This document shows positions 1-42,738 of a DNA stretch of 63,969 bases, piece after piece (position 1 is the first letter of the stretch; every line of letters starts with the position of its first letter). The notes beneath the pieces were generated by a model that made no database searches, had not been told where the DNA came from, and was given only the letters and a program-made list of their open reading frames with translations. The translations under genes were made by a program, and so were the position numbers. Source of the stretch: Psammoneis japonica (Eukaryota); the NCBI GenBank assembly GCA_008632985.1, contig QPGO01000306.1, forward strand, positions 1 to 63,969, read 5' to 3'.

Positions 1-1784
1 TCTTCATCGGCACCGGCACCGCACTGAAGAACAGCGCCGAAGAATTTCCACAGCTCCTGCCATGACTTTGGGATGAGCGTACCGATACTTGACAACCTGG
101 GCTTTTCATGATCCTGCGTGTGCCTAAAGATGGTATTGCTCACCTGTTCCCTAGCGCGTGCAATGGCACTTTTGCTCGTTACGGATACTTCCAGAACATT
201 GGGTAGGATCCGGAGCAGCGGCGGCTTCTTTCTTTCCGTCGAGTCCTCTGGAATGGCACGATCATAAAGAGCACTTTCCTCTCCTTCTCGATTGGCGGCG
301 GCATGACGCCATTTTTGAAGCTGCCCTTGGACTTTATTGTTGAGCCATTGCATTCTTTTCTCGAGCCATTGCTTTCGTTCAACCTCTTCCAACTCGTCCG
401 GCACAAGATCAACCTTGGATAGGACAAGTTGCACCACGGCACCGGGCGCCCTTGCCTGTAATAGTACAAGAAAGCGTTGCACTGCTTCTTCATAAAAAGC
501 GTCGTGTGCCTTATCCGCCGCCACGACAAGTAAAAATAGCGACGACGCCGTCATGAATGGTGCTTGCCCGACAGCATAGTCTTGCTGACCGCCGCAGTCA
601 TAGACCATTAACGTAATTGGATCATCGCTGTATTCATCGGGTGCGTCTATCTGCACAGGTTCCACGTTAAGATAGATTGTCCGTTCCTCCTCGCCCCCCA
701 TGAGCGCCGGGAAACGGCAGGCAATGGCATTGCGCAGGCTCGTCTTTCCTGCTTCCCCACCCCCCACGAGCACCGTTTTGAGCTGTCTGGATCTGATTGC
801 CTCCCCTTTATCCAGGGCTTCAAAGTAACGAGCAATCGCCCCGAGGCCCTGTTTGGCAATCTCGGACGGGGGTTCCAACAGGGGATTACTGTCCACATTA
901 AAATATTCGCACGTTCCCTCAAGTTTGACAAAGGAGCGTGGAAGTCTTGTAATGTAATTGTAGCTCAGGTGCAGCTTCCGGAGATTTGACGCCAATGTAT
1001 TATTCATTTCCAGTACTCTTCCAAGGGCCGCTGCACCCTCGTCTCCAATGGAATTGCCGCCGAGATGAAGCACCGTCAATGTTGTATTCATTTCTAGCGC
1101 TTTTCCAATGTCCGCGGCACCCTCGTCTCCAATGGAATTGTTGAAGAGATGAAGCTCCGTCAATGTTTTATTCATTTCTAGCGCTTTTCCAATGGCCGCT
1201 GCACCCTCGTCTCCAATTGAATTGTAGCCGAGATCAAGTAACGTCAACGTTTTATTCGTTTCCAGTGCTTTTCCAATGGCCACGGCACCCTCGTCTCCAA
1301 TGGAATTGTTGTTGAGAAAAAGATCCGTCAATGTCTGGTTTGTTTCTAGTGCTTTTCCAATGGCCGCTGCACCCTCGTCCCCAATGGAATTGTAGCCGAG
1401 ATTAAGCACCATCAATGTTTTATTCGTCTCCAGCACTTTTCCAATGGCCGCAGCCCCCTCATCTCCAATGGAATTGCTGCTGAGAACAAGCCTCTTCAAT
1501 GTATCATTCATTTCCAGCGCTTTTCCAATGGCCATGGCACCCTCATTTCCGATGGAATTGTTGCTGAGCAGAAGCACCGTCAATGTTTTATTCGTTTTTA
1601 GTGCTTTGCCAATGGCCACGGCACCAGCGTCTCCAATGGAATTGTACCTGAGATTAAGCCTCGTCAATGTTGAATCATTCTCTTGGAAGCGACGAATGCG
1701 CTCTCGTTTATGTTGTGGCAAAGCGCCGAACCAATCCGCTGACATGTCGATGCTGCTGCTATAACTTGACAAAGACTTCTCCAT
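1..1784 (-). CDS. LRR-Roc (Roco) GTPase, paralogue 1; partial, runs off the window start
   Basis: ATG at 1784 (MEKSLSSYSSSIDMSADW), 8 LRRs of 28 aa, Roc P-loop VLVGGGEAGKTSL and DCGGQQDY. Frame checked at 1784, 776 and 50. Collinear with 3586-7140. Absent from the ORF track, presumably because no stop lies in the window. Confidence 0.85.
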   Translation of the reverse strand, partial: MEKSLSSYSSSIDMSADWFGALPQHKRERIRRFQENDSTLTRLNLRYNSIGDAGAVAIGKALKTNKTLTVLLLSNNSIGNEGAMAIGKALEMNDTLKRLVLSSNSIGDEGAAAIGKVLETNKTLMVLNLGYNSIGDEGAAAIGKALETNQTLTDLFLNNNSIGDEGAVAIGKALETNKTLTLLDLGYNSIGDEGAAAIGKALEMNKTLTELHLFNNSIGDEGAADIGKALEMNTTLTVLHLGGNSIGDEGAAALGRVLEMNNTLASNLRKLHLSYNYITRLPRSFVKLEGTCEYFNVDSNPLLEPPSEIAKQGLGAIARYFEALDKGEAIRSRQLKTVLVGGGEAGKTSLRNAIACRFPALMGGEEERTIYLNVEPVQIDAPDEYSDDPITLMVYDCGGQQDYAVGQAPFMTASSLFLLVVAADKAHDAFYEEAVQRFLVLLQARAPGAVVQLVLSKVDLVPDELEEVERKQWLEKRMQWLNNKVQGQLQKWRHAAANREGEESALYDRAIPEDSTERKKPPLLRILPNVLEVSVTSKSAIARAREQVSNTIFRHTQDHEKPRLSSIGTLIPKSWQELWKFFGAVLQCGAGADE

Positions 1785-3585
1785 AAGTTTTTTGAAAACG
1801 AGACTTGTTTCCAAGCAATCCAATCCCAGGCAAGCAGCGCCAGTATCTTTTTCGTTTCACTCGATTTTTCGCATGAGTCGTCCGTCACATTCGTTGGTTG
1901 CGTTGCCTCTCTGCGATGAAACTGCTCGAATGGAGCAAATGTGTTGGTGTATCTGACGAGAAGAGACAGTATCAATGATGGGAATGTTATACCGTGTATT
2001 GTATGAAGGTTACAGTGTAATGGATAATGGCTCTTGCTCGCTTGTGATCCTCATCATCGTCGTGCGTCAGTGGCTTTTTGCGAACGGATTGATTCTGATG
2101 CATGACCGATCGAAGGTCATGCATTTTTCGTCTGCCCGTGTGTCTTCGCTTTTACCCCCACAGCGTGAAATTCTCAATCCGTGGCCATCGGAGTCGCACA
2201 AATAATACGCTGTACAGTATCAACAATGACCCGCTCACCGTCGTCGCCGCTTGTGTGGTGTGGCACTTTTTATTGATATGGGCGTATCCTTCATTGTCTA
2301 ACACACCTCGTGATGTGTTGGTGGATTGCTGAGGTGATATGTGTAGCGTTGCCGGTTGCCGTTTGTTCAAGCGCCGATGATTGAGGATTTCATCTTTGCG
2401 TAGAATTTGTATGGATGTCTACAGGGCGTCATTTTTGGTGTCAAGAGAACGCATTCGATTTGAGTACCAAGTTTATTATGGATGATCCAGATTGTTGTAT
2501 TTTGATGTTTAGCACTATTTTTTTAAATAGCTCGTGATTTTCGAATTTCCCCGTACTTCGCCCGTGTTATTTTGCGAAGCCTCTGAGCACCCCCAAACAC
2601 ATATGAGTGTGCCCAGCCCCCATCAGGGCTGGTAGACCTTTAGGTGAACTACACATATTAACCTTCAAACGCCAATTATCGTGTTTGGTACAGTTGTTAT
2701 ATCCGATAAAGCACGATTTTTCGCCAAAATTAGACTGCTTATGGTAGATAGGTCGTAACTTTCCAGGAAAAGCCGGTAATTGGCTTTTAACCGGCTATAG
2801 ACATATCTACAATTGTTAAGCTACACATCGCGCATGGTCGCAACCGTCATATGTGCATTCTATGTTGTCTTACAAACAGACAAAGTTCGACCCATCGCTG
2901 ATTTTTTTTTCGGCGAACGCGCGCATTATTAGTACGACAAATCCGGGTTATTTTTAGATATTTACGAGCTCTAAATAAAATCGACCGCTAAACAACGATC
3001 CATCCTTAGACGCGTCGATTCATGCCTTGGTTTTGTAGCATAGAATAGTGTGGGAGCAACGCGAGCGGCTTTTATCGCCATGGCCATGTCGTTTCATGGT
3101 GAATGTAAACAGTCAGTTGTGTTTGCAAGTTCGTCGAAATGTTCTTCAAGGAGGACCCAATGGCAGCAGTTCTCTAAGCTTAGCGTTGTCCTCAACAAAG
3201 CTCTGGCGTTGAAAGGAGCTCTGCAAAGGCTGATCCTTCAGTGTGCCCGAACAATGGTTCAAAGTTCGGATGCAAGAGCGATTTCTAAAGCATTAATCTG
3301 AAAACTAGAAAAAAACAGGAGTCGCATTTACGATGTGTGCCTAGAAGAAAAACCTTTAGATGCTGCTTCTACAAGTTGAAAGTGGGATCGTTGAAAGGTG
3401 TCAGATGCTTTCATTGGGCTCTTCTCTCTTCACCCTCTAGCGTTGAGTAAAGCTCAAAAGCTAGCCGTCTAGAGAGAGAGGAGCAGGTGTCGATCGGTCG
3501 ATCGATTGTTTAGCGTTGCTACGCACACCCGCCCTGCAACGCCGGCGCTAACAGGTTAGCCATATCTTCGCACTGCCTAAGGGCC

Positions 3586-6500
3586 CTACTCTCCAGCTTT
3601 GTGAACTCGAACAAAGCTTTCTAAGCTCGAGTCAATACCTGGAACGTCTTGCCTCCCCCGGTGTTCTTCGACGTACTGGATTAGCTTGTCTTTTAATGAC
3701 AGCGCATCCCAATCTGAACGGTCTTGTCGTCCACATTTCAGGCGCTTAATGAGGTCTGGCCACAGTACCTCCACCAAAAAATATGCCGGGTCCTCCGTCC
3801 GAGACTTGCGCCAGTTGATCTCCCTCACGGCTGGTGCAAAATTATTATCGAGTTTTTGTATCTTCCAAAGATATGGGAGCACAACTAAGTTTCCCTTGCT
3901 CCGACGCATCATGAAGGTATTAAGCTCCATGACACAGTAATCACTCTCTCGAAACCCAGGTGACAACAAAACCAAAGCATGTGAAGAGCTATGCGCAGGT
4001 TCCATTAGAGAACGCATCTTGTAGTCACCGGTTTTCATGCGATCATCATCAAAGAAAGCGGTGAGACCCAATATTTCTGATAAGAACCAATGCGTAGGAC
4101 GAGCAATAGTCTCTTTGGTATCGATACCTCTATGCGACAAAAACACGTACGGATCACCACCAAGGTTGTACTGCCAAACGCTGCTTGGGTTCACCACCCC
4201 AGCCATTGACAACTCTCCAACATCTGTCTCGATACCATCCAACAGTGCTTGCGTGTACAAGCTAGAGATGTTGCGTTCACCGGCTGCAATCGGCGAGACG
4301 TAGGTTGGCGAATGGCCAGGTATATCTTGTGCCGGATAAAGGTGATTCAGGCGTTCCATCATTTTGTCAAGCAACTCATCCTTCTGAATAAACTTGCTCT
4401 CGTGGAATGTTCCATCTCCAGTATGGCACACCCTTCCGACTTGAACAACTTCTTTGCATACATCACACACAAGAGAATCCGTTGTCCTGGACGCAGCTAC
4501 ATCAGACCAGTCGAATTCGTGGCACTCGTTGATGGCTCTACCAAGGTTTATGCAGCGTGCGCAAGCGAGTACACAGTCGAAATCCAAACCTGGAAAATGA
4601 TCGTTTCTTTCCGCGATAACAAATTCGACTGCACCTTGTAACAACATCCACATGTCCCTGTCAACGCGAGCACCACGAGCTGTGAATACTAACCATGCCT
4701 CTCCTTCCATCTCAACAATCTCCGACCGCAAGCGACGGTTGGTGTTCTCGTCGAGGACAATCGAGCCATAAAGCCATGCACAGATACATTTCCCATGCGC
4801 ATGAGTCGCGGCGGCAAAATGTGCAGCGAGACTTGGAGGACAGCCTTCCCACATCTTCAGGCGCAGCTCTTGTTGTTGTTGGTCATCAAGCACTTCTTTT
4901 GGCCACGCCTTTCGCAACTCTTCCGGTTGCACTTTTTTTTGTTGGCGAAAGAGAACCACGGGCTTGAGGCCACGCAAACTGTCATCAAGCAAAGATACAA
5001 AAATAACGTCCGAATCCAGAAGCATCTGGAGGATCATCGGAAAATCCTTGTAATCCTTTACTAAGTCATGCCACAAGAAGGGAAGAATCACGGGGTCCAA
5101 CTCTCCCTTTTCTATCAGCTTCTTGAGTCCCTCAATTATGAGATTCCGCAGTCCAGCAGGCGGTCTCATAACTCCTTTTACAAATGTTCCAATACGTTTT
5201 TTGAAAGCCTGTGATTTTATTTTTTCGAGTGTCAACGTTTCGTCTATGAGAGGTTTGATCAACTTGGTTACAAAAGACGGTTCCAGATACGCCAACCCAG
5301 CATCAACAAAAATACTGCCCCGGGCTTCAAGCAATCCAAGTGCATCACTAAACGTATTGTCGTCAGCCAAGGGGGCGTGCAAGATTCGAAATTGATTCCA
5401 CAATGACTTGAGCTTCGCAACTGAACAGTATGGTCCTTTTGCAGATGTGTCCGTTTCACCATCTGTTGCCGTCCTCATATTCCCGATCTCGCCCAATGGG
5501 ATGGCGTCATCCGAACTTGCTACGGAGAAAAGCGCTTCCTCATCGGCATCTGTGCCGCACTGAACAACCGCGCCAAAGAATTTCCACAGCTCCCACCATG
5601 GCTCTGGGATTAGCGTACCGACACTCGACAGCCTCGGCTCAACACGATCCTGTGTGTGCCTAAATATGGCATTGCTCACATCTTCCCTCGCGCGCGTAAT
5701 GTAAATTTCACTCATCACGGATACTCCCAGGACATTGGGTAGGATCCGGAGCAGCGGTGGCTTCTTTTTCTTCGAGTCCTCTGGAATGACACGACCATAA
5801 AGAGCAGCTTCCTCTCGATCAGCAGCGGCATCACGCCATGCTTGAAGCTGCCCGCGGACTTTATCCTCCAGCCATTGCGCTCTATTCTCGAGGCATTGCT
5901 TTCGCTCACACTCGTCGAACTTGTCCGACACAAGATCGACCTTAGATAGGACAAGTTGCACTATGGCACCCGGCGCCCTTGCCTGTAGCATCACAAGAAA
6001 GCGATGCACTACTTCTTCATAGAAAACGTCATGTGCCTTATCCACCGGCACGACAAGTAAAAAGAGTGACGACGCTGTCATGAATGGTGCCTGTCCGACA
6101 GCATAGTCTTGCTGACCACCGCAGTCATAGACCATTAGCGTAATTGGATAATCGCTGAGTCCTTCAGGTGCATATATCCGCACGGGTTCCACATCGAGAT
6201 AGATCGTCCGTGTCGCCTCACCCTCAGTGCGCGCCGGTAAACGGCTGGCAATGGCATTGCGCAGACTTGTCTTTCCTGCTTCCCCGTCCCCCACGAGCAC
6301 CGTCTTGAGCTGTCTGGATGTGGTTGCCTCCCCTTTATCCACGGCTTCAAAGTAGCGAGCAATCGCGTGGAGGCCCTGTTTGGCAATCTCGGGCGGGGGT
6401 TCCAACAGTGGATTATTGATCACATTAAACTCGCACGTTCCCTCAAGTTTGACAAAGGAGCGTGGAAGTCTTACAATGTTGTTCAAGTTCATGTCCAGCC

Positions 6501-7140
6501 TTTGGAGATTTGACGCCAATGTTGAATTCATTTCTAGCGCTTTTCCAATGGCCGCAACACCCTTGTCTCCAATGCAATTGTCTTCGAGAATAAGCTTCGT
6601 CAATGTTTGGTTTTTTTCTAGCGCTTTTCCAATGGCTACGGCACCCTCATCTCCAATGGAATTGTCGCTAAGATAAAGCTGCATCAACGTTTTATTCGTT
6701 TCTAGTGCTTTTCCAATGGCCGTGGCACCCTCAACTCGCATGGAATTGCCGCCGAGAGAAAGCTTCGTCACTGTTGAATTCGTTTCCAGGGCTTTTCCAA
6801 TGGCCATGGCACCCTCATCTCCAATGTAATTGTCGCCAAGAACAAGCTCCGTCAATGTTTTATTGATTTCTAGTGCTTCGCCAATAGCCGTGGCACCCTC
6901 GTCTCTAATGTAATTGTCGTAGAGACGAAGCACCGTCAATGTTGTATTCGCTTCTAGCACTTTTCCAATGGCCACGGCACCCGCGTCTCCAATGGAATTG
7001 AACCAGAGTTCAAGCCTCGTCAATGTTGGATCATTCGCTTGGAAGCGACGAATTTTCTCTTGATCATCTTGTGTTAAAGCGACGAACCAATCCGCTGACA
7101 TGTAAATGCTGCTGCTGTAACTTGCCAGCGACTGCTCCAT
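3586..7140 (-). CDS. LRR-Roc-COR-TIR protein (Roco with C-terminal TIR)
   Basis: 1249-aa ORF from 7335; Met 7140 matches the paralogue start. 6 RI-type LRRs plus a cap, GDGEAGKTSL/DCGGQ/SKVD Roc motifs, COR region, CARC..CDVC pair, TIR motifs YVFLSHRGIDTK, AFFDDD, SPGFRESDYCVMEL. Intronless. Confidence 0.9.
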   Translation of the reverse strand: MEQSLASYSSSIYMSADWFVALTQDDQEKIRRFQANDPTLTRLELWFNSIGDAGAVAIGKVLEANTTLTVLRLYDNYIRDEGATAIGEALEINKTLTELVLGDNYIGDEGAMAIGKALETNSTVTKLSLGGNSMRVEGATAIGKALETNKTLMQLYLSDNSIGDEGAVAIGKALEKNQTLTKLILEDNCIGDKGVAAIGKALEMNSTLASNLQRLDMNLNNIVRLPRSFVKLEGTCEFNVINNPLLEPPPEIAKQGLHAIARYFEAVDKGEATTSRQLKTVLVGDGEAGKTSLRNAIASRLPARTEGEATRTIYLDVEPVRIYAPEGLSDYPITLMVYDCGGQQDYAVGQAPFMTASSLFLLVVPVDKAHDVFYEEVVHRFLVMLQARAPGAIVQLVLSKVDLVSDKFDECERKQCLENRAQWLEDKVRGQLQAWRDAAADREEAALYGRVIPEDSKKKKPPLLRILPNVLGVSVMSEIYITRAREDVSNAIFRHTQDRVEPRLSSVGTLIPEPWWELWKFFGAVVQCGTDADEEALFSVASSDDAIPLGEIGNMRTATDGETDTSAKGPYCSVAKLKSLWNQFRILHAPLADDNTFSDALGLLEARGSIFVDAGLAYLEPSFVTKLIKPLIDETLTLEKIKSQAFKKRIGTFVKGVMRPPAGLRNLIIEGLKKLIEKGELDPVILPFLWHDLVKDYKDFPMILQMLLDSDVIFVSLLDDSLRGLKPVVLFRQQKKVQPEELRKAWPKEVLDDQQQQELRLKMWEGCPPSLAAHFAAATHAHGKCICAWLYGSIVLDENTNRRLRSEIVEMEGEAWLVFTARGARVDRDMWMLLQGAVEFVIAERNDHFPGLDFDCVLACARCINLGRAINECHEFDWSDVAASRTTDSLVCDVCKEVVQVGRVCHTGDGTFHESKFIQKDELLDKMMERLNHLYPAQDIPGHSPTYVSPIAAGERNISSLYTQALLDGIETDVGELSMAGVVNPSSVWQYNLGGDPYVFLSHRGIDTKETIARPTHWFLSEILGLTAFFDDDRMKTGDYKMRSLMEPAHSSSHALVLLSPGFRESDYCVMELNTFMMRRSKGNLVVLPYLWKIQKLDNNFAPAVREINWRKSRTEDPAYFLVEVLWPDLIKRLKCGRQDRSDWDALSLKDKLIQYVEEHRGRQDVPGIDSSLESFVRVHKAGE

Positions 7141-7773
7141 ATTTTTTTTGAAAACGAGACTTGTTTCCGAGCAATCCAACAATCCCAGGCAAGCAGCAAG
7201 CAGCGCCAGTATCGTTTTCGTTTCACTCGATTTTGCGCAAGGATGAGGGAGTCGTCCGTCACATTCGTTGGGATGAAATTGCTCGAATGGAGCAAATTTT
7301 GAAAATAACAATGAAGAGACAGACAGTGTCAACATTGTACCGCCCGGTAGGTTGTAGGGCCCTAGGGCCCTACTACTCTCTACTAGGTACTCTACCGGTA
7401 GATATACACATAAATGGGCGTCAGCCAGGGCGTTTGCGCAGGATTGCTTCTGGTTCCTTTCAAGTCAAATTAGTACGACAGTCTTTTTTTAAAAGCCTGA
7501 AGGAAAGGAATCTCTAGAGCTAGGTCGAGTGTTTCTTTTGAAGAATCTTCAACCAATCAAAAATGCCGCTGCGGCGCACTCGTCCCGCCCATCAATTCAA
7601 TCTTAAAACACACACCGCTGCTTTCAGCGGCTACCTTAAGGCTTAGTCACGCCTGATTTTTCCTTTCAATCCACAACCATGGAATGGAGTCAGAGCGTCG
7701 GCACACAAAACAAATGCAACTGCGCTTGGCAAGTCGTGGAGCGCTTGATGACTGCACCCTTTCCTGCCATTGG

Positions 7774-10700
7774 TCAGTCTGTTGTGAAGGCAGTGGCCGC
7801 ACGTTTCGCTGTTGCTGCTGCCGCAAGCCAGTGTCTTTTAAAATCCATGTCTTTGGTTGGCACCTCCTCCATGGACTTAGAAAACCACCTGGCACACTGG
7901 GGCATGTCGGATGGGTGGTTGAAGAATTCTGCACATTCTTCTTCGATCCGCCCATCAAGAACGCTGTTGACAGTGAGTCTTGCTTCCAATGTTGGAGATG
8001 CAGCCGCCCACATTCTGTGTTGCCACATGTCCCATGCTGCATTCCACAGTTGTTGAATGAGACCTGCTGCCCATCTCTCACCTGCATTCCGACGCTGAAT
8101 GAATTCGCAGCACGACTGTTGAGCTGCTGCCCACTCCATGGCAAGGAATCCACGTGCCAGAGAGTGATCGCCAAGTTGCTCTTGTGCTGTGAAAGCCTGT
8201 TGCACCTGCAGATGATCCAATGTTGGTGCAGGACAAGGGAGCTCATCGTGCCAGCTCTCTGCAATGTGGACAACACCCTTCCGTAAGTCCGGGTGAGTTG
8301 AATGATCCGTCATCCACCTCTCCAAGCTTTCCACCTTTTTCTGCCACAGCTCCTGCGCCGCATGGGCCTTGCACTGTAGCATGTGGTCTGTTCCACCTTT
8401 GTTGTCCCCGCATCTTGGGCACGCTGCACTTTTCACTTTTTTCCAATGACACATGTTGTTGTTCGTGGGGACGAAGCCTGTGTTCCACTTTGGTTGCCAC
8501 AGTTGCTGAAACGTTGGACACCTGTGCATTGCTCGTCCCAGTGCTTGCCAACCGACAGTCACGTGGGTGTGTTCAATCTGCAGCTTCTTCTTCCAGCATG
8601 CTGTTGCAGGCGGACTGCATGTGTGATCAAGAACCATCATTTGTTCTTTCCATGATGTCAATGTTGTGTCACGCAGCCCAACCATCCAGATCGGTTGTGC
8701 AATCTTGCATGGAGTGGTGCCTTTGTGCTCTCGCAGAGCTTCCCAGCACGTTTTGGCTGAGAGATCCATTTCAACATTCAGTTGTTCAATGTAGGACAGT
8801 TCCTGCAATGGCACAATCTGATCCTTGTGACCCTCAACCTCGACAGCCTCCACTGTTGTCGGAAGTTCCTGAAGCACACTCCTGACAGTGTGGGTCAGAT
8901 CACAGTTGGTGAGAGTCGGATCATTGTAAGAGTTGCAGAAGCAGGTCCTCAATCCAAGGTTGCAGTTGCATGCAAGGGTCATCCTCCCGCTGCTGATGTT
9001 GTGCTGTTTGCACAGTCTTCAGAGAAATGCCACCATGCCAAAAACACCACCCAACTCCCCTCTGCAGGGCACAAGGTCTGTGGTCACTCCCAGCGTCTGA
9101 TTCACTCCCTTGTGCCGGTGTGAGTGTCCTTCACAGGGCAGCAAGATCATCCCTGCCGCTGCCAGTCCATCTTTGTGCGACCCATCTGTGTCACTCAAGG
9201 CAGTCCCATTTTCAATTCCTTGGACCAGTGCGGACAATTCCGGTTGGCGTCCGCATGGAATGAATGACCAATCCGTGTCACTGAGAGTTCTCCCCTGCTC
9301 TGCCACCTGCTGGATTGGTGATGTTCCTGTTGGTTTGATCCTGGTGCTGTTGCTTGTGACCTGAGTTGGCAAGGCGTCCTGTGGCATGGCATGGACGGTG
9401 CCATTTAGTTGATGCCGTGATTGCCTGTTGCGCCTGTTTTGAGGGAGTCTTGTGTGCAGTGCAATGCCATGCTCCTCATTGCAGCACACTCTGTCATCCA
9501 TTTCCGAATGCCACCATGCTGCAGTCAGTTTCTGCATCCACATTTTGAGTGGTCGCCAAAGTCGGAGTTGCTGGTTCCCACCTGCAACCAGGAAACTTGT
9601 TGTCAGTGCTTCTTGCCACAGTTGCCAACACGGTCTGGAGGGATGCCCTGCCTTTGGCCAGTTGTGCGTTGTCTGGCAGGTTGCAGTGCCGTGCCAACAG
9701 TCTGGGAGTGTCCTTCTGCCATCCCTGACACAATGTCCGACAAACATGCCACTTTCAGCCACATTCTGCACAGATTGATCTTCCTTTGATGGTTGCCTTT
9801 GTAGCTGTGTGCTTTGAATGCTTCCATCAAAAACATGTCATTTTGCCACAGCGTTGGAATCGTGACCATCGGGGCGTGCAATTCAATCAAGCATGATGAA
9901 CAGAAGTGCCACAGCAATTTGGTCCATGTCTTTGTGGCTAAAATTGCAAGTTTGTTGCAATCTAGTGAGAAGACATGGTCCCCATGCCCGAGTTCGAGCA
10001 CCATGGTTTCGCACACATGTTGTGTCTCTCTCCCTGTCATCAATGGTGTGTCCATTTGTTGCAAGTAGACCGCCACTTTTGCGGGTCCCTTGTTTCACAA
10101 AGAGTTCCAACAGGCCCAGTCCGTCAAACCGTTTTGGTGCATAGAGAATTTTCTTGGGGAATGACCGAGGACATCCCATTGCGGGCAATGCCACTTCGTA
10201 CAGCAGTTTCTCCATGTGTTTGCACTCTGCTTTTGTCAGAGATGTTGCTGCCAGTGGACACTCTGTGGATCGCATGATTCCACCAGTCAGAGAAAACCAG
10301 GCCTCAGTTCTGTTGAGATGTCTGCAACGCACTTGGTCTGCCCATTTTTCCACTTTGATTTCCATTGCCTCGATCTGAGCCTCCGAGTTCCCGTCTGGTG
10401 CGATGTGCACCCCCAGTGACTCTAGTGCTTCCGACACCTCAATTCTTTCTGCCATTGTCCTGTTTCCCTCATGATCTAGTGGGGTGATGTTGCCTGGTGA
10501 TTCCTCCTTGCTCTGATGAGTCCAGCGGTCATTTAGCCACTTGAAGGATGCAAGGGACCAGCAGCTTTTCTCTGGCACCAATGCACCTCCTGTGGCCCAG
10601 ATTCCTCCTTCCCAGCAACAAGACACATCTTGAATCTCATTCAGCACATCTTCGTACGTTGAGTCATCAGAGCCAGGGAAGCACGGAAGGTCTGTGTCAT

Positions 10701-13253
10701 CAACAAACGTGTGGCACACACAATGGCATGCGTTCTTAGAGATCGGTGTCATTGCCTGAATGCCGCAGCCTTCTGCTTGAGCGTGTCAATTGTTGGGATG
10801 CCAACCACAAGCCAAATGGCCGGTGCTGCTCTATGACCTTGAAAGATGCCTTGCAAGGGAATCTTGATGGTGCCATGTGGTTCTTCTGAATCTCCGTGTG
10901 CTGTTCTAACACAGTGCTTCATCTGCATCAGTGTCCCAGTCATCATGAAGACTTCATCCTCTCCTGCTCCAAACCTTCTCATGCACAGAGCGGCTGCTGC
11001 ATGAAGAATGCAATCACAGCATGATTTGGCATCCGTGCTGTTGACAGCTCCCAGTTGATGTGACTGGTGGAACATGTCTCCCATCAGTGCCTTGTTGAGA
11101 GCACACAGAATCACTTGATGCCTCTTCCTGCTGCCGCACACCTCCCATGGAATTGCTCTGCATGCCTCTGCATTGTTGACGAGGGCCCTTGCCATGTGCT
11201 TGTTCATCTTGTCATGCATGGCATCGAATGGTGCAATGATTTGAAGTTTCTTGACATGTGAGGAGTCCATTTTCTTGGGGATCATGACGTCTGTGGCCCC
11301 AGTCCAACACTTGGGTGCACATCCATGCTCAGCCGGAATGGCTGACACTCACAGGAGTCAAACTCCGCCAAGGTCTCATCTGAACACCCTGCCTTGTAAT
11401 CCAAGAAGGCCAAAGGGGCTGCTGGTTGTGTGAGCCTTCATTTTCTTCCAGCCTGTGACATGCTCCTTGGTGGTGCAGTCCAGACAGATGTCCGGGAGTG
11501 GTGGTTGTGGTCACTTGAGCTGCTCAATGTATTTTGCTGCGTGTTCATCCACTCCTGGGGGGATGACATGGGTTCCGTCTAGCACTCTTTTTGCTGCAGG
11601 GGCATGAAAATTACAGCCAAAATCCCTGAGGAGAGGTTCTTTCACAAATGGAGCTGTGCATTGCCTTGTTCGAGTTTGGCCACATCTGGAGCGTCCTTCT
11701 CCTTTGCATGCTTCCTCCATTCCCTCTTTCATTGAGAACACCTTGTCTCTACCCTGTTTGGTCCCGGTGCCGTGACTGTTTGAAGAGCCAGTCAGGTTTG
11801 CCAGTCACTCTTTTGATGCGACTGAACATTCTCTTTTGCCAGTGGCTGTGCCGAACAGTGCGTTCCTCTTTCTCCTGAGTCATGCCAATTCTTCTGCTTG
11901 TTTTGCACATCGGATCTTGAACTCATCTTGACAAAGCTTTGCAGCTCGTCTTTTGAGTTTGCAATGTTGTTTCATTGCCAATTTGTGTTCTTCTAATGCT
12001 TGGTGAGGTCGAAGCCTGAGCGCGTCCATCCGTCCTGCACACTGCATCCGCCTTTCAATGATCTTCATGCCAACTCTCCAAAAATGGTGCAGCTTGTACA
12101 CCAGTCTCCACAGGTGAATCTCTTTTCTTGCTTTGTTGATGACATTGCTGCACTCCACCTCGTTCATGTGCAGTTTCCTGCATTGCAATTTTGCCTCTAA
12201 CCTGATTTGATGATTCAGTTGAAAGATTGACTTGCACTCTTGTTGTTCCGCCAGGCCAAAGTCATCAGAGTTTTCCAGTCAAATGGCTCTTTGCAGTGGA
12301 TCGTGTTTAAGAATTGCTGCCACCACGAGCTGGATGTCCTTCTTCACAACCTTTGGATCTTTCAATTTTCCTGCCAATTGATCCAAGATGTTCTCTGAAA
12401 GCTTTGGTGGTGTGAAACCCAATGCACTAGATTTCAAAATGTCAACCCACAGGAGGCAGTGGTCGGAGGTGCAATCAAAGTCACCAAATCCTGTCATTCC
12501 TGCCTTCGTCACTTCTGAGGTGGGGGATGTGAGTGTTGCATCAACCAGAATGTTGGAACGATTCTTGTCACATGTTGCCACTGCTGGAAGGTCCGGATGG
12601 TTGGTTTTCAGTGCATCAATTAGATGAAGGGACCCACACCATGCAATGAATGTCGTCCCTTGAACACTCTCATTGAAATTGCCTCTGACTACAATTGGGT
12701 TGCCCTCTGCCTGCCATTCCTTGATGTGGTTTGCCACGTCTTCTGGCACTGTTTGTTGAGGACAGCAAAGATCATTCTTAGAGAAGAGATGTGTTTCTTG
12801 TTGTGAATGGACTCTTCCTGGATTCGCTTGATTGTCTCAAACCAGTCAACACACTGCGACAATCCTTGTGTGTGCGCCTGATTTGCCCCGCAGTCTCGCC
12901 CATGTCCATCTGCCCAGTCCTGATGGATCTTCTCCACTTGAGACTAAATGGTGATTGACATGCCTTGTTAAAAGTTGTCCCACCCCACTGCACTGTCTTT
13001 TGTTTTCCGTTGAACAGTGCTTGTCAGTTGAGACGAGAGAGCTGTGTTTTGAAAGGTTCCGCCATTGATCTTTCCATTGCTTGTGTTTGGGGATTTGCTT
13101 GAAGTTCAAATTAATCTCTGTTGAGCCCATGATGTCAGAATGGTGTTCTGTGATCCAATTCATTGTTCCTTTGTGTTTGTCCTCAGAAGAAGGTGAAACT
13201 GGAAGCCCTCCGACATCACGAAATGCAATTCTGATGACGTTGTGTCGTTTCAT
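7774..13253 (-). pseudogene. LINE ORF2 (APE-RT-RNaseH-zinc finger), frameshifted
   Basis: APE: IRIAFRDVGGLP, GNFNE, SDHCLLWVD. RT: DAKSCCDCI (=KSCYDRI), QGIFQG, FVDDTD. RNase H: TDGSHKDG, RGELGG, VEGHKD, LNVEMDLSAK. Finger: CPRCG..HMLQC. Confidence 0.85.
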
Positions 13254-13305
13254 TGATGTGCTGTCTCCCCATGCCTTGTCCAGTTGACGACCAGCAGTGT
13301 CTTGA

Positions 13306-15642
13306 TTAACGTCCTCCTTTTGCGGTGGTTGTCGTGACCACTGAGGATGGCAGGGACTGGGGATCCTGGCCTGCTCCCTCGGCCTGAGAGCTGGGATGAT
13401 CTTCTGGGTCTCCTTGCTTGGAGTCCATCTGGGCCAAACCAGTGTCTTGGTCTTTTTCTGCTGGCAGCTCCTCCAATTCTTGAATCAGTGCTTTGTTCTG
13501 TTCTTGTGCTTCCTTTAATTTCAATCTGGTCAAGGGCACAGTTTTGACAGATGCACCCTCCTCTTGTTCGCATTCCTGATGATTCTCCAGATTCTCAAGG
13601 TCAAAGGTTGCCGAGCGTCTCGTGGCGGATGCATGCTGCGTGTCATTGTCCTTGTTCCTTGTGTGGCCAACAGATTCCACATCAGCAGCTTGGGATGGTT
13701 TTGCAGCCACTTCCTGTGCTGCTGCAGGTGGGGATTTGAGACCAGCTCCCATCCATCTGCTTGCTTCTTTTTGAGCATTCAATTCAGAGAACTTCCGTCT
13801 TTCCGCACCATCCGCTTGTGCTTTCTCATCAGTCCACTGCTCTTCCACACCCCAGGGGTCCTCCTTGATCACATCTGACAACATTTTGCTGTCCTTGGAT
13901 GTTGTGAGTCCAGTTTCTGGATCACACTTTGACTGCTTGTACATGGCTGTCCCTGTGGCTGTGAACCAGGGTTCTGCGGAGGCTCCACAGACATGCAAAC
14001 ATTCCGGGACAATGTTGTTGATCATTTGTGCCACGTGATCAACCAATTTCCTTGGGAATGTGATTGCATGATCGGTCGGTCTATTCCACTTGACATCAAG
14101 ATGATGAATCAGTGGAATGATCTTTTCTGGATTGGTGGGATCTGGAATCCTTTTCTGCATGAGATGTTGCAGTGGTGCCATCTCTCCACCAGTGGCATGT
14201 GTCTTACGGTCCGGGTTGTCTAGAAAGCCAAAGTCAAGTTGTCCCACAACTTTCTGACAAAAGAAGTGTTGACGTTTTTGGAATTTGTTGATGTTCTTGT
14301 TGGTTTTGTCTGAGGCATGCTGTGTGGTGGAGTTTGAACAGCAAGGAACAAAACTTGGTTCCAGTCCTAGATCCTTTTTCCTGGCACCTGCCCTCCACAG
14401 TTGTTCAGCTGCGAGCTTGACTTTGTGCGCTTTGCTGGACTCAACAATGACATGAAGAGCTTCCGGATTCTCAGTCGGTGCATTTCTGTCAAAGGTGGGA
14501 CGTTTTCTGTCCCTTCCTGCAATGGATCTCCATTGAATGCCCAGGCTGTCACAATCTTTGCCTGAGCCAAGAGCTTTGCCAAACTGTTTGTGTGGTGTCC
14601 GCTCGCTCATTGTTTTGGTGCTCTGATGCAACCATCCAATGCATTCAAAGTGCATTGATTGACAAGGCATGGGGTTGTGTGCGATGGAGAATTTGCCTTT
14701 TTCCATGTCAGCAAACATCCCTGAAAGTTGAGAGCCACAGTTTGCCACAGTTCAAGGACTGCAATCTTCTGACACCTGGATGAGATGAAGTTGGCAGCAT
14801 GTCGTGTGTTCACAGTTGGCTCTTGGGTTGAGATGATTGACTCCCAGGAAGGCGCTTAAGATTTCTCTTTCTTTTGCTGGTCCTTCCGGAACATCTTCTG
14901 GAGAGGCCAGTTCACCAAAGGTGTCCTCTAGATCAGGGTCCCATGTGCCAATGCGTGCTTTGTGTCCAAGCATCTCCTGCGTTGTTGCAAACAATTCTCT
15001 TGGGACAGAAGCCACTGCTTTCAAGGGCTTTTTGGAAGGTGGGATGGTTGGAAATGCATTGCATCACAACTGACGCCAAGGGATGCCTTCTGCTTGCTCA
15101 GTGGATTTGGTTTCTTGTGGTGTGTTGGTTTGCTGCAACTCCCTGTCATTCGCTTCTTCCTCATTTTCTTCGTCTTGTAGTGTGTTGGTTTGCTGCAACT
15201 CCTTTTTGTTCGTTTCTTCCTTGTTTTCTTTGTCAGATTCTGTTGAATGGTTTTTGCTTGTGAGTTGTTGAAAGGTTTCCTCTTCATCTGAGGGTTCTTC
15301 ATGCATGTGATCTTCTTCTGTGATTGCAATTTCCACCGGAGTGATTGCTTTTGTGTTCTCATCTTTTTGGTTTTTTCTGCCACGTGTGAAAGGTTTCTCA
15401 TCGTCCGGTGTGAATTTTTTCTCCTTGGTGTTGTCTTCCTTGGTGCGTGAATTGTGCGTAGAATTTGTGCAGGAGTTTTTGGTTTTTATGGTCTTCCACT
15501 TGTTTGTTTCATTGTTCCGTTCCTCATTGTGAGATCCTTTGGTTGTTTCATTGATTTGACCTTTGCCCTTTTTCTTTTTGTCTCCTTTGTGTGGTGAGGT
15601 GTTTTTCTTTCCGCCGGTGCTTCTGCGTTTTGTGCCACCCAT
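13306..15642 (-). pseudogene. LINE ORF1, fragmented
   Basis: Basic/acidic low-complexity N-terminus MGGTKRRSTGGKK and consecutive fragments (15064-15642, 14752-15024, 13306-14748) directly upstream of ORF2. Confidence 0.65.
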
Positions 15643-15783
15643 TGTGCAATTTTTTTAGCTTGTTGTTTGTGCGCATCAAAGGAACAGTCAAAGCCATTGT
15701 TGTTGCATTGTGCACCAGGGCCCTGCTGCTGTTGCTCTGCTCTGCTCTACTCTAAAAATCACACACGCAAAACAAGAATCAAA

Positions 15784-17842
15784 ATGGGAAAAAAGACGGC
15801 TGATGCAAGTCTCAAGGGCAAAAAGCCCATTCATCGAGGCACTCAAAAGATGGCCACTGCGTCCAATCCGGGTTGGATTGGGAACAAACTGAAATGCTTG
15901 GAAATGCACGGAAAGCATCTCATGGAAAAGAAGCGTCAAAAGAACATGGCTCATCGTCAACGCGCCAAGGAAGCCAAGGCACTCAAAGAAGAAGCTCCAG
16001 CAAAGCCCACGCTGCGAACTCTCCAAAACACGCGCGAGTTGGAGCTGTTGGAAATGGTGGGTTAAAAGTTCAAACACCAAAATTAGACAGTGTGAAGAAG
16101 ACGCATGTGTCAGCGCTCATGTGCTCCACGTGAAGCAACAAAACTGCCGATGGAAGCAGTCATTGTTCTCTTTTGACTGTTGCAATTTATCTTTCTCTCC
16201 ACCAGGGTCAAGGATCCAAACAAATCGGATTGGCCAAAGCTGGCGAGGCTCATGAATTTCCTCAAGACAACCCATCTTGATGTCACAGTCATGTCGGCTG
16301 GAGAAAAAGTCATCATTGAGTGGCACACGGATGCCGCATTTGCAGTCCATCCGGACTGCAAAAGTCACACAGGTTCTGCCATGACCCTTGGAAAAGGTGT
16401 CATTGCATCAGTCAGCACGAAGCAGAAGATCAACACCAGGAGTTCTACAGAAGCAGAGATTGTCGCAGGAGACAATGTTTTGGCAAAGGTCCTTTGGACC
16501 AAGTGTTTTGTTGAAGCTCAAGGTTTTGAAGTCAAGCGTGACATCATGCATCAAGACAACCAAAGTTGCACGAAACTAGAACAAAATGGCAAGGCCAGCT
16601 TGGGCAAACGCATGGGACATTTCAACCTCAAGCATTTTTACATCACTGACCTCATCAAGCGAGGAGAACTTGAGATTGAGTTCTGCCCAACAGACAAGAT
16701 GATGGCAGATCACATGACCAAACCAGTGGTTGGTAAAAAGTTCATTGTTGATCGTCAAGCCATCATGAACATCCAAGTGCCCAAGATGGTCAAATTTGGA
16801 AACAGCAAGAATCTTGTCATTGGTCAGCAGGAGTGTGTTGGAAATGGTGAACTAAAAGTTCAAACACCAAAATTAGATGGCGTGAAGAAGACGCATGTGT
16901 CAGCGCTCATGTGCTCCACGTGAAGCAACAAAACTGCCGATGGAAGCAGTCGTCATTCTCTTTTGACTCTTAGAAAGCATTGTCATAACAAGCTTGTCCA
17001 TTTTGGCCTCAGGATCAGACCTCAGAGGATTGAGGTGGCTCTGGAATGGTCACCAGAAGGATAAATTACAACAGCAACCAATGCCAGCAAAACCACACGA
17101 TGAACAAGTTGCCGCCAATGAAGCCAAAGATGGGTTTGCACCGCACTTTGATGATCAAGTGTGGCCCAAAATGCTCATCACCACAAGACCACGTCCGTTG
17201 AAACAGCTCTTTTATTTCATTGCAGACTTGCAATGATTCATTCCGCAAGTGCACTTTTGTCCTCTTAAATCCTTTACAGTCAAGGAAATTTGTGGCTTTG
17301 CTGCCAATCGCGGCTTTGCCCATTTGATTGTGTTGAGTGAAAAGTCCAAAGCATGCAATGGCATGACCATCTTGCACATGCGGGTGCAAAAAGGACACGT
17401 GACGGCCGGCCCCACCGCCTCTTTCAAGGTGAGCAATGTCATTTCATTGACCAACGTTCCCAATCATGGGTCGGCCGCCAGCCACATTCCCGAATTGGTC
17501 TTGAATGGATTTGGAACACAACTTGGACATCAGGTCGGGCATTTTTTGGGGAGTTTGTTTCCACACAATGCTCAGTTTCAGGGACGGCAAGTGGCGACCT
17601 TTCACAATCAGCGGGACTTTGTCTTTGTCAGACATCATCGACATGTCTTTGAGCCGTCCAAGAATGTCAGCAAAGAAACACAGCAACCCAAGACCAAGGC
17701 AAGGTTTAAAGAATTGGGACCTTGATTTGCTCTCAAGCTCTGGTGGATTCAGGAGGGTGCATTTGACACCATGTTTGGTGAGTGCAAATGGATTCACAAG
17801 CGCAAAGAGATGGACACGACGTGCAGAAAGTTTCACTTGTAA
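15784..17842 (+). pseudogene. RPF1: RPF1-like Brix-domain ribosome biogenesis protein pseudogene, interrupted by Copia
   Basis: N-terminus ..IGNKLKCLEMHGKHLMEKKRQK..TLQNTRE; after the insertion PKMLITTR, GPTASFKVSN, HIPELVLNGFGTQLG, GRQVATFHNQRDFVFVRHHRHVF, ELGP*FALKL, RKFHL*. Internal stops. Confidence 0.85.
16046..17073 (+). mobile_element. Internally deleted Ty1/Copia (CoDi-like): partial LTR, RNase H, PPT, LTR
   Basis: Direct repeat TGTTGGAAATGG.. at 16046 and 16836, the second preceded by CAGCAGGAGTG. ORF 16180-16923 carries Copia RNase H motifs DAAFAVHPD, SSTEAE, QDNQS, ADHMTKP. Right end approximate. Confidence 0.85.
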
Positions 17843-18252
17843 GATTTTGCTGGCAGTGCAGCACCGGCAGCACAGCTGATGATTGTCAATGATCCATTGT
17901 TTGCAAGTTTTTTGTGTGGTGCTGAAATGCTAAAGAACATGCACATGGATTGGATGTGACCCAGTTGGTTCCCTGTCACATGTTCGACATGCCGCCGCCG
18001 TCTTGCACCATTTCGTGAAGTCGCGTGCGTCATTGTCTTCTGCCTTGTTTTTGAGGCTTGGGGTTTTGGGGGGAAAATTTTTCAACAAAAGGGGGGATCC
18101 CCCAGATGAAAAAGCGGGGGTCCAGATTTTGGAAAGCACTGAGAATGGATGATCAAACAAACCTAGAAAGCTTCAACTGTTGGTGCCTGGACTGACCTGT
18201 CATTGCATGCAAGGAATGGAGACAGTCTCATCTTGTTTGATAGAATTCTTGT

Positions 18253-18400
18253 TTAGTTTTCATTGAAAAAGAAGTTCCTCAGCAGAGAAAAGATGTGCTC
18301 GGCAGCACCAGAAGATGGCTGAACTAAAGCAACGAGGCATGGGAGTGGAGCTGCATGCAGAAGCGGCGGCTTGTCACCGGATGATTCATCTGCAACAGGC
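18253..18400 (-). pseudogene. hAT-like transposase C-terminal dimerisation fragment
   Basis: LVALVQPSSGAAEHIFSLL resembles the hAT PxSSAxxERxFS motif; lies in a decayed TpA-poor block (about 18060-20880). Confidence 0.4.
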
Positions 18401-20885
18401 GCATCTTCCACCGTCACATTGTTTTCATTGTCTCTTGTCTCCGTGCTGTGTTGCAACTTGCAACTCACCACTTGCTGCAAAATGGCACACTGCGTGCTGC
18501 GCATGATGCACTCACAACCCAGGTCTGCCAGACACAAACAAACTGCCCCCCCCTGCTCCCCCAAAACCCTTGAGCCCATGTGTCAAGGCTTGTTCTTGTC
18601 TGCAAAACAAAATGCTGTGTTGTGCATTGCCCATCAGTGCAGCTCAGGATCTCACATCATGGTTGTTCCATCGCCCTGTCAGAGAAAGCAAACTTGTGCC
18701 CTCCAACCTTGTAGAATGCCATCTTGTGCATGGTTGGAGAGTGCACTTGCACTTGACTTGATGGCAACTGAGGAGATTCTCTGCCATTGGTTGTCTCATG
18801 GTCATGCCACAGCCACAAGATTCAAAAACAGCTTCAGAGTTGAAATTGGTTCAAAGACAAAAGTGAGAATTGGCGTGGCAAAACAAAAAGCATTGGCAAC
18901 AATCATCAAAAACACAGCCACAACAGTCGTGCGGTGCTCCAAACCAAAAGAGCTCACATGGAAGGGTGCCACAAAAAAAGTGCAAGCAGGAGCAGAAGGA
19001 TGCATTGTTTTTGCTTTTGTGCTGAAAAACACAACAACAAAAGCAAGGCTTCTTTCTGTTTTGTCCTTTCCTCTTTTCCAGGCTGCTGCTCTCATTGTGG
19101 CCAAGCACTGACGAGGAGCAGGTGACAAGGTTGTTGGGTTGGTGGGTGGGTCACAGCTCATGGTGTGGTGCTGGCAGCCATGCAGCAGGCTGCACAAAGG
19201 ATGCAGAGATGACCATGGGCTCCAGCTCTGCAAGGTGCAAGAGGGGGCACAAGGGTGCTTGCATGGAGTGTGGTGAGCTCTTAGAAACTCACAATGAAAC
19301 TGCAGTCTCTGGTGGTGAGTGCGCAAGTTGGCCAATTTGTCTGCTGTGCACCTGCTGACATGGTGAAATGCAAACTGAGTTTGCAAAGCGCTGGTGGCAG
19401 CTCAGGGAAGTTGTGTTGTTCCAAGACCAAATGGTCACCTTGTGCAATCCTGGGCCAATCATCAGGACAAAGATGCTGCAGCACCCTGGTCTGCTGGTCA
19501 GGCACAAGACATGCTGGTTCTAGCTCAGGGGTGAGCAAGCAAGGTGGTCAAGCAATCTGTGCCTCATGGCAGTGCAAGGGCCGGCCAAGGGCCAAATTGA
19601 TCAACACATGCACATTGACTTGCTCTTTGGCCAAGCAGGGGCCCAAAACTGAGGTGGCCCTGTTTTCCGGTGTTGTGCACATCAAGCAGACTAAAACCTC
19701 CTTCCCAAAACAGCTTGGCAACTGTGCATGCTGCAGGAAAACAAAGATGAAGGTGTGGCAGATTTCACACAAATGCATCATGTTGATGCAAACCTTTCTC
19801 TTTCCGCAAACAATGCCCTGGTGGGAACAAGAGCCAGCGGTTGACAAATCACTGAAGCAAAGCTCAAAACACACAACACGCACCCATCATGATGCAGGCA
19901 AAACAGCTCAAAACCCAAAAAACCAAGAGCAGGCAAGGGCCATTGTCATCTTCTGTTGGTCAGATCTCATTGCACCCTTCTTGATCTGCCAAAAGGCCCC
20001 CACACCAAGAAAAATGGCCAGCTCATTGTTGCTGCGCCTGGCGTTGCCATGATGAGTGCTGGCAATGGCGCAAATGTGCTGGAGGCCATTGTTGCAGCTG
20101 CTGGGGACCCCACCACTTTCACTGCAGTGAGAGCAAACTCACCACATGCCAGCACCAGATGCTTTGCCCTGGATGCTTTGTTGCCCCAGACCAGAGCCAT
20201 GCCATTGTGGCTGGTGGCCACACACAAAATGTGTCCAAAATCACCTTTGCAAGTCTCCAGCCCACAAACTCACATGTGAGCCACCCTCAATTTGCTGCAG
20301 CAATGCACCCATGCACAGCCACAGAGCTGTTTTTTTTTTCCTGCCAGCCCTTTGATGAAGAAGACACAATCATAGAAGTCGTTGTCGCTCCATGGCAAGA
20401 AGAGGCACTGGCGCGAGAGCGCAAAAAAATTGAGCAGAAGCCAATCTTGTGCACCTGACAAACAAGCAGGCAAGGCATGCTTGTGTTGCAACTCCCTGGG
20501 AAGGCGGTCCATTGGGTGTCTTTTGTGAGGCAACGAGGCTGCTCCCCCAGATGTTGCCTTGTGCTGCACGTGTTGTCCTTTGTGCAAAATGTGCCTTTGT
20601 TTTCTGAGGCAACTCTGCCACAGATGGACTGTGCAATCTCGCGGTTGTTTGTTTGGCAGACGATGGTTTCGCTTCTCCATTGTTTGTTTTTTCCTCGTTC
20701 CACGTGGAAGCAGAATGACCAACGATCCTGATCCTAGCTTTGCGAACTAAACTTTGCAGCCTGTTTTAGCCGTTTTCTGGCCTTTTTGGCCTCTTTAGGA
20801 CGTTTTGACGCTTTTAGGCTTTTCTAGAGTGACAACAGTTGTGGCGGTTTGTTGCTGTTTCAGGCTCTTCTGTTTGGATTGCGGA

Positions 20886-21176
20886 TGCCAAGTGGCGCCA
20901 AGCAACAGTGTGAAGCAGCGTTGTAAAGTTGACTGTTGCTAACATTGTGAGAAGAAATGAAAGAGATTCGGCTGCTCCGAAATCTCGTAGAATTAACACT
21001 AAGAAACCGCGTAGAAATGTGAAGAAACAATCTTTCGAGAGGCATCGAGATGTATCGAGAAAGGAGAAGAGGTTTCTAGAAAGTGTCATCGTTGACATCC
21101 TTTTGACACTTTTGACACCAGGTTGACACCCACGAATGAATGTACGAATGAACACAGATGACCGTGACATTCGGCA
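20886..21176 (-). repeat. 3' LTR of Gypsy copy A
   Basis: 291 bp, one of four copies, adjacent to the PPT. Confidence 0.95.
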
Positions 21177-25420: not shown

Positions 25421-25493
25421 GTCTGGTCAGGACAATATGATCGGTAGATATATCTCAAGAGAGATAAATAAGTGTTTGGGAGTAAATTTACTA

Positions 25494-32299: not shown

Positions 32300-32372
32300 G
32301 TCTGGTCAGGACAATGTGATCGGCAGACACATCTCAAGAGAGATGAACAAGTGTTTGGGAGTAAATTTACTG

Positions 32373-42250: not shown

Positions 42251-42738
42251 TGAAACCTTTTTTTTAACCATTTTTTGCCGGTCCTTACCTCACATTGTCT
42301 CCTAAAGCCGTTGTCTATTTCACCACAACGAAAGAATGCAAACGACAAAGAGCTGTCGCGTCGTCGTCATGGCAGAGTGGGAGCCACCAACAGTCACGCA
42401 CAGGCGTCGTAGATTCTGTACGCAACGGACAATCATAGGCATAGCATCGGCATGCGTTTTATCCATCATCGTATGATGTCAAATACCGGTTACGTCTCTA
42501 CGTGAACGAATGTCCGAGTTATTTTATCGGTACAGTATGTGCTGGAATTCCAAATACCATATTGCGTTGGTGTACCGGTAGTTCCTACAGTACCTGAATT
42601 TGTGGTTTGGTTGTTGGTTGCTGGTTGCTGACCGCTGACTTTCCACAAAGCCAGCTCGAACGGCATTGCATTAAGCAATAAGGTAGCCTAGTAAGTTACT
42701 AAGACAGAGAAGAGCCACCCTATCTTACGTGCAGCAAC

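Follow-up and report, generated by a model that had tools for sequence, protein, structure and literature searches.

The window analysed in this study is the whole 63,969 bp stretch (positions 1–63,969, forward strand) of contig QPGO01000306.1 from Psammoneis japonica (assembly GCA_008632985.1). On its minus strand, positions 3586–7140 hold a single open frame for a protein that combines leucine-rich repeats (LRRs), a Roc GTPase, a COR domain, a predicted zinc site and a TIR domain. We conclude that this gene probably encodes an intracellular receptor working in the manner of nucleotide-binding leucine-rich repeat receptors (NLRs), drawn from an expanded and recombining diatom family and equipped with a TIR predicted to cleave NAD+ as output. 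The features of the gene are as follows:

3586–7140, minus strand: LRR-Roc-COR-Zn-TIR gene, single open frame, 1184 amino acids
6523–7026, minus strand: six 28-residue LRRs of the ribonuclease-inhibitor type (residues 39–206), hypervariable at positions 5, 7, 9 and 10
5638–6330, minus strand: Roc GTPase (about residues 271–501), from Pfam, the structure model and motifs
4564–5637, minus strand: COR domain (COR-A and COR-B, about residues 502–859), the rear part being a ‘type A’ cassette
4456–4563, minus strand: two CxxC pairs (C860/C863 and C892/C895), putative zinc-binding site predicted where COR-B ends
4147–4293, minus strand: conserved linker (residues 950–998), the crossover zone between the COR-B partition and the TIR partition
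3736–4146, minus strand: TIR domain, ‘type I’ cassette (about residues 999–1135), from Pfam, PDB matches and alignment
3925–3927, minus strand: codon of E1072, placed by alignment to AbTIR

The frame runs uninterrupted over 1184 codons from an ATG at 7140 to a stop at 3586, with a further in-frame ATG upstream at 7335. Since five paralogs carry a methionine at the equivalent of 7140, and three of these have a stop about 20–30 codons upstream, 7140 rather than 7335 is likely the start codon. The unbroken frame and the collinear paralogs suggest a gene without introns, as the initial annotation had claimed. It had also placed LRRs, Roc-COR, a CxxC pair and a TIR in one open reading frame, which agrees with Pfam, the structural match and the motifs: Pfam recognises the LRRs (LRR_6, 106 bits), Roc and TIR, while COR was identified by its structure. 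The protein of the window copy starts with ME. The paralogs L013 and L014 start with MGxxxS, which we take to be an N-myristoylation pattern.

The Pfam match to Roc covers residues 279–402 (35.6 bits, cut-off 27). Motifs G1 (GDGEAGKT), G2 (Thr), G3 (DCGG) and G4 (SKVD) are intact, and a helical insertion of about 60 residues lies behind G4. The Pfam COR profile yielded no match in the protein at E ≤ 1. The structure predicted for residues 271–920 from an alignment of 57 sequences reached a pLDDT of 90.5 and a pTM of 0.91, and its top Foldseek matches are LRRK1, LRRK2 and the Chlorobium Roco (E 1e-19 to 7e-13). Compared end to end, the model aligns with residues 1329–1867 of LRRK2 over 483 residues (Z 26.6, rmsd 5.6) and with Roc-COR of C. 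tepidum over 434 residues (Z 18.6, rmsd 5.6). The COR-only chain 3dpt was matched at E 2.4e-6. Based on the matches to LRRK1/2 and Chlorobium Roc-COR, the model places a COR directly after Roc despite the silent Pfam profile. With its Roc G-domain and COR, the protein is a Roco. The CxxC pairs 860/863 and 892/895 were found again in most relatives covering that region. Because the centre of the protein is Roc-COR and not NB-ARC or NACHT, it is a Roco with a TIR and not a STAND NLR; it may work in an NLR-like way.

The C-terminus is a TIR domain by homology. Pfam TIR_2 matches residues 999–1114 with 34.9 bits (cut-off 28) and Pfam TIR yields 25.3 bits (cut-off 21.3). In the PDB, the best matches are AbTIR (E 3.6e-8) and the TIRs of plant TIR-NB-LRR proteins (TNLs), the best E values being 3.6e-8 for the single sequence and 1.7e-11 for a profile. 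The fold predicted from the single sequence has a pLDDT of 34, and the identity of the domain is taken from the sequence matches. Both motifs quoted in the initial annotation were located, FLSHRGIDTK at residues 1000–1009 and YCVMEL with E1072. E1072 aligns to the catalytic glutamate of AbTIR and plant TIRs on helix alpha-C, while Y1068 occupies the position of W204 in AbTIR. Of 93 domain hits, 80 were aligned as TIR rows (13 were too short), and the glutamate is kept in 77 of these. With six rows from three proteins resembling plant TIRs set aside, it is kept in 71 of the 74 TIRs of the clade, and in 20 of the 21 from this genome. Tyrosine, phenylalanine or tryptophan is present at the equivalent of residue 1068 in 63 of the 74. 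The cyclase TIRs covered by Manik et al. all have an aromatic residue at the W204 position, and the active site is described there as formed between two TIRs. By sequence, the TIR with E1072 is nearest to enzymatic TIRs, and NADase activity is predicted for it.

The conservation of the TIR also bears on a docking function, in which a variable receptor would recruit TIR proteins of the same clade (TIR-U-box, TIR-Kelch-TIR, helicase-TIR, Ank-TIR) and would itself show hardly any enzymatic activity, or none. The clade is indeed found on many other architectures in the genome, the two TIR types described below could determine the choice of partner, and few Glu-bearing TIRs were active in the screen cited below. 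However, the glutamate, a cysteine, the beta-A serine and the beta-B aspartate are maintained across the clade at only 30–50% identity, and the best solved matches are enzymatic, with TLR1/6 and SIGIRR matching far more weakly. We consider a docking TIR unlikely.

The sensor is built from units of 28 residues (84 bp). Counted in those copies in which both end anchors were found, the number of units in six copies is 6, 8, 11, 2, 8 and 6, the copy with two units being frame-broken. Across 51 units from 10 genes, the beta-strand positions 5, 7, 9 and 10 have an entropy of 2.7–3.1 bits. In the same units, the proportion of nonsynonymous differences (pN) on the concave face is 0.547, compared to a proportion of synonymous differences (pS) of 0.259 in the framework. 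The corrected ratio of the two is 3.1 (bootstrap 2.5–3.75), with a nonsynonymous to synonymous rate ratio (dN/dS) of 0.39 in the framework. Random disjoint pairs of 57 units gave an uncorrected ratio of 2.3 (2.05–2.64), and the first units of six genes, which share the same array position, gave a pN of 0.65 versus a pS of 0.20, with values of 0.07–0.16 for synonymous sites within the strand. For the other domains, dN/dS is 0.25 (Roc), 0.30–0.38 (COR) and 0.38 (TIR); all three are under purifying selection.

A neutral or decaying expansion beside transposons would read these data differently, with the LRR pattern resulting from gene conversion and the mosaics described below from misassembly. 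In its favour, the gene adjoins a decayed element, a number of copies are broken and 7 of the 12 copies examined are followed by partial TIR duplicates. Synonymous sites within the variable strand, however, remain near (pS 0.07–0.20) while the facing residues differ, so that retained old tracts fail to explain the LRR pattern. Purifying selection on Roc, COR and TIR likewise speaks against such an expansion, as do the presence of every cassette combination on two different contigs and the COR-Zn-TIR order in an unrelated metagenome protein of 37% identity. In addition, the gene is free of TpA erosion: its observed/expected (o/e) ratio of TpA is 0.53, compared to 0.39–0.69 in six ordinary genes of the window and 0.10 in the decayed element upstream. 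We regard a neutral origin as improbable. A broken gene was ruled out for the window copy by the intact frame and motifs and the lack of TpA erosion.

The 91 Mb assembly was searched with Roc and COR-B queries, and all counts are lower bounds. The family occupies 14 places. Twelve of these have a Roc of at least 79% identity (the query itself included), one was recognised by COR-B and TIR only and one is a diverged copy (38%). A single frame from LRR to TIR is present at seven places, at one of which Kelch-like repeats precede a different TIR. One paralog lies in tandem in the window:

3–1787, minus strand: tandem paralog in an open frame at 3–1856, with eight LRRs, Roc and the first part of COR, behind which the contig end truncates it; start approximate

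Degenerate partial copies of the rear half of the TIR were observed 3' of the stop in 7 of the 12 copies examined (L014, L017, L018, L019, L020, L021 and L022); no such duplicate is listed behind the window copy.

Two of the copies, C121 and C399, form an allele-like pair. Their flanks are 96.7% identical over 6.9 kb upstream and about 94% identical downstream, and in the 3054 bp behind the LRRs 2 substitutions and one homopolymer base separate them (99.9% identity). The 5' parts share 84–85% identity and comprise 8 and 11 repeats, respectively, and the 5' end of C121 is nearer to four other paralogs (89–94%) than to C399. From these values, C121 and C399 are probable alleles that differ in the sensor.

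Allele-like copies differing mainly in the sensor would also fit a sensor with NADase output by which diatom cells tell self from non-self or recognise mating partners, similar to fungal incompatibility receptors. Diversifying change fits balancing selection of any cause, and the PNP effector of relative P0013 is reminiscent of fungal NLRs. Diatom cells, however, are known to fuse only at sex, and around a dozen dispersed copies better match a pathogen-facing repertoire. Furthermore, the protein looks cytosolic, as neither a signal peptide nor a membrane helix is visible by eye in the sequence. Partner recognition thus appears quite unlikely as the function of the family.

The copies also exchange parts behind the sensor. 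Nine were compared; this set omits C121, which pairs with C399, as well as the copy with Kelch-like repeats, the diverged copy and two that are truncated. Two types of the COR-B/zinc region, A and B, were distinguished, with about 90% amino acid identity within A and about 55% across types. The TIR occurs in types I and II, with 85–89% identity within I and 62–68% across. All four combinations exist, on two contigs each:

A-I: window gene and C9a
A-II: C9d, C263b and C263c
B-I: C130 and C9c
B-II: C263a and C399

Biallelic informative sites separating A from B (166) all fall in residues 600–949, whereas those separating I from II (78) all fall in residues 1000–1184; other splits account for 250 sites. 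The COR-B and TIR regions reject each other's tree (delta lnL 617 and 625, the approximately unbiased test giving a few-replicates warning). A helicase fusion acquires its TIR from approximately the position of the linker 950–998. Based on these comparisons, the repertoire appears to arise without introns, by unequal exchange in the 84-bp repeat array and by exchange between paralogs.

In the NLR-like receptor proposed here, the variable face of the LRRs would serve to bind a foreign molecule. This ligand would release the Roc-COR switch, and the GTPase would alter the assembly state in a nucleotide-controlled manner. TIRs clustered in this way would cleave NAD+, with either a cyclic ADP-ribose (ADPR) messenger or NAD+ loss and cell death as output. 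The cyclic product is suggested by the aromatic residue at position 1068. Pathogens would be the selective agent behind the changing LRR face.

Several points weigh against this proposal. The presence of the glutamate is, taken alone, a weak predictor of NADase activity: one recent screen detected a product for only 4 of 29 unicellular-eukaryote TIRs that have it (25 of 154 overall), and TLR2-type TIRs are reported as inactive though the glutamate is kept. What is observed are the domains, their conservation and the way they evolve; each functional step is deduced, including that by which a Roc-COR cycle would lead to a multi-TIR active site. The dN/dS values were counted in pairs of repeats that recombine and are not independent, and do not come from a site model; diversifying selection leaves its agent unnamed. 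Five of the 14 places are frame-broken, and contig ends truncate three (one place belongs to both groups). At least two of the breaks coincide with homopolymer runs and are possibly errors of sequencing. Some of the 14 places are probably haplotigs, so the copy number may be too high, and assembly collapse could account for the 99.9% stretch of C121 and C399. Of the functions assigned by the initial annotation, the immune receptor is strengthened by the paralog family, the changing concave face, the differences in LRR number, module swapping and effector replacement. Its catalytic TIR is favoured by the nearest enzymatic relatives, AbTIR and plant TNL TIRs, while the kept glutamate, on which it had relied, is a weak predictor when taken alone (4/29).

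The homolog search covered 1.84 billion representatives and gave 675 matches, the best 150 of which were considered. Pfam scans were performed for 49 relatives and then in detail for 20 (18 of them already among the 49). The best chassis matches, among those listed, end near residue 880. Named chassis relatives are two proteins from the pelagophyte Chrysophaeum taylorii and one cluster that includes Prymnesium polylepis. The ends attached to the Roc-COR chassis are PNP_UDP_1 (P0013), Trypsin_2 (P0029), CHAT (P0051, P0110), GT4-conflict (P0106, P0124), Death (P0133) and a weak ART match (P0035). The TIR clade is found in relatives also on TPR, WD40 and Kelch proteins. Among 175 proteins compared, chassis and TIR occur together only in the query and the two-member cluster P0019/P0160, compared to 100 proteins with the chassis only and 69 with the TIR only. 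The metagenome fragment P0160 aligns collinearly with the query from COR through the zinc site to the TIR (37% identity), and the fusion thus extends beyond this genome. A word-index search with the region from Roc to TIR found only 5 proteins, which matched via Roc. TIR pattern scans, which reach close relatives, confirmed none of 25 pattern matches in viral contigs, 0 of 49 in prokaryote genomes and 0 of 88 in metagenome contigs. A search of the genome for a SLOG-type (STALD) receiver gave no match, the controls being silent likewise.

Elsewhere in the genome, the same TIR clade is fused to helicase, ankyrin, Kelch and U-box domains. The helicase fusion (L016:1761-5972 (+), G000 C183) is a DEAD/ResIII/SLFN-g3-type protein of 1404 amino acids with a TIR 76% identical to that of the query, and is a candidate nucleic-acid sensor with the same output. 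A TIR-Kelch-TIR protein (L029:5767-7959 (+), G000 C310) lies directly behind two LRR frames, and its layout was seen again in relative P0011. A second kind of Roco-TIR in consecutive frames, positive for Pfam COR-A, is present at L033:1696-6037 (-) and L034:3497-6273 (+), and a TIR-NB-ARC-TPR protein at L045:1297-3312. In L023, L025, L027 and L028, a clade TIR is followed by a common domain without Pfam match; the TIR of L027 has alanine in place of the glutamate.

The layout is already in print as a bacterial prediction. Prokaryotic proteins with LRR, AP-GTPase (Roc), COR and an effector are predicted to counter invaders (Kaur et al. 2021, PMC8195603), and TIR is given there, by prediction only, as one of at least 24 swappable C-terminal effectors. 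The likeness to these systems, as they are described there, comprises the domain order, fast-evolving N-terminal LRRs and several paralogs per genome, and the effector ends of the chassis relatives match their effector set. The combination of a variable LRR, Roc-COR and an interchangeable effector that characterises them is also present here. Different are the eukaryotic algal host, with the closest named chassis in a pelagophyte and a haptophyte, the zinc site before the TIR and the exchange of COR-B/Zn and TIR cassettes between copies. What is new lies in the host group, the size of the family, the diversification without introns and the swapping of cassettes.

The initial annotation referred to the LRR-ROCOs of brown algae; the host is a diatom. 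Shared features are an expanded stramenopile Roco family, local duplications, pseudogenes, variation in repeat number and selection on the concave face, positive selection having been reported for four concave LRR positions in brown algae (Zambounis et al. 2012, PMC3341825). The Ectocarpus LRR proteins described in that paper lack a TIR, and exon shuffling, with one LRR per exon, rearranges their repeats, whereas the diatom gene has 28-residue repeats within one frame and a fused effector. For diatoms and other non-brown SAR taxa, at most 4 Rocos per species are given by Teng et al. (2024, PMC11378527). The same source contains a TPR-ROCO-TIR of the red alga Chondrus crispus, which shares the eukaryotic Roc-COR and TIR but has TPR as sensor. 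The legend of Fig. 3 in a preprint (bioRxiv 10.64898/2026.04.20.719644) names Roc, COR and LRR as domains found in proteins whose TIRs made cyclic ADPR, which implies that a Roc-COR-bearing eukaryotic TIR made the product.

The glutamate at the catalytic position is shared with plant TIR-NB-LRR proteins (RPP1, Roq1, L6/L7) and AbTIR, and the plant proteins likewise have an LRR sensor with a diversifying concave face. They contain a STAND ATPase instead of the Roc-COR GTPase, and in the diatom protein the TIR is C-terminal and the LRRs are N-terminal. LRRK1/LRRK2 and the Chlorobium tepidum Roco have the same LRR-Roc-COR core fold. The diatom protein differs from them by the lack of kinase and WD40 domains, the TIR output and its membership in a fast-changing multi-copy family, as opposed to single-copy genes.

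To our knowledge, the detection of viruses, oomycetes and bacteria by diatoms is largely open, and a literature search found nothing on this topic. The search, which covered mainly literature outside subscription, found no paper on a diatom Roco-TIR family. A role as immune receptors was suggested for the Rocos of brown algae in 2012 and for those of bacteria in 2021. A direct readout is lacking in the papers considered here. A Roco that has a single exon and a fused TIR would supply one, in the form of NAD+ products measurable in E. coli. Natural LRR alleles are material for specificity swaps, natural COR-B/TIR recombinants could reveal interchangeable parts, and the family could reveal a Roc-COR switch that drives an enzyme other than a kinase. 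Only tentatively do we extend the receptor function to a combinatorial, GTPase-switched immune repertoire of diatoms, in which an intronless LRR sensor rebuilt between alleles would be joined to freely recombining two-state COR-B/zinc and TIR cassettes and would produce an NAD-derived messenger or death upon infection. If true, such a repertoire would provide the first access to how a major group of phytoplankton senses pathogens inside its cells, and would allow the predicted Roco-TIR design to be examined in a eukaryote.

The host is a diatom, as shown by two genes on the contig: one is a diatom pyrenoid shell gene (Pfam E 4e-85), the other a methyltransferase gene whose nearest Atlas cluster is mostly Bacillariophyta. 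Bacterial contamination was ruled out by the same two genes. Sharp blocks at 7500–21000, 33000–35000, 40000–42000 and 45000–53000 have TpA o/e values of mostly 0.01–0.2 and are depleted in CpG. These blocks adjoin genes with normal values, and the repeated Roco genes escape the depletion. Two near-identical copies of a gypsy-like retrotransposon, named from motifs by eye and one of them with an open frame of 1409 codons, are located at 21198–25426 and 28076–32305 on the minus strand. An animal-type haem peroxidase gene at 42703–44385 on the plus strand is flanked by two TpA-eroded blocks.

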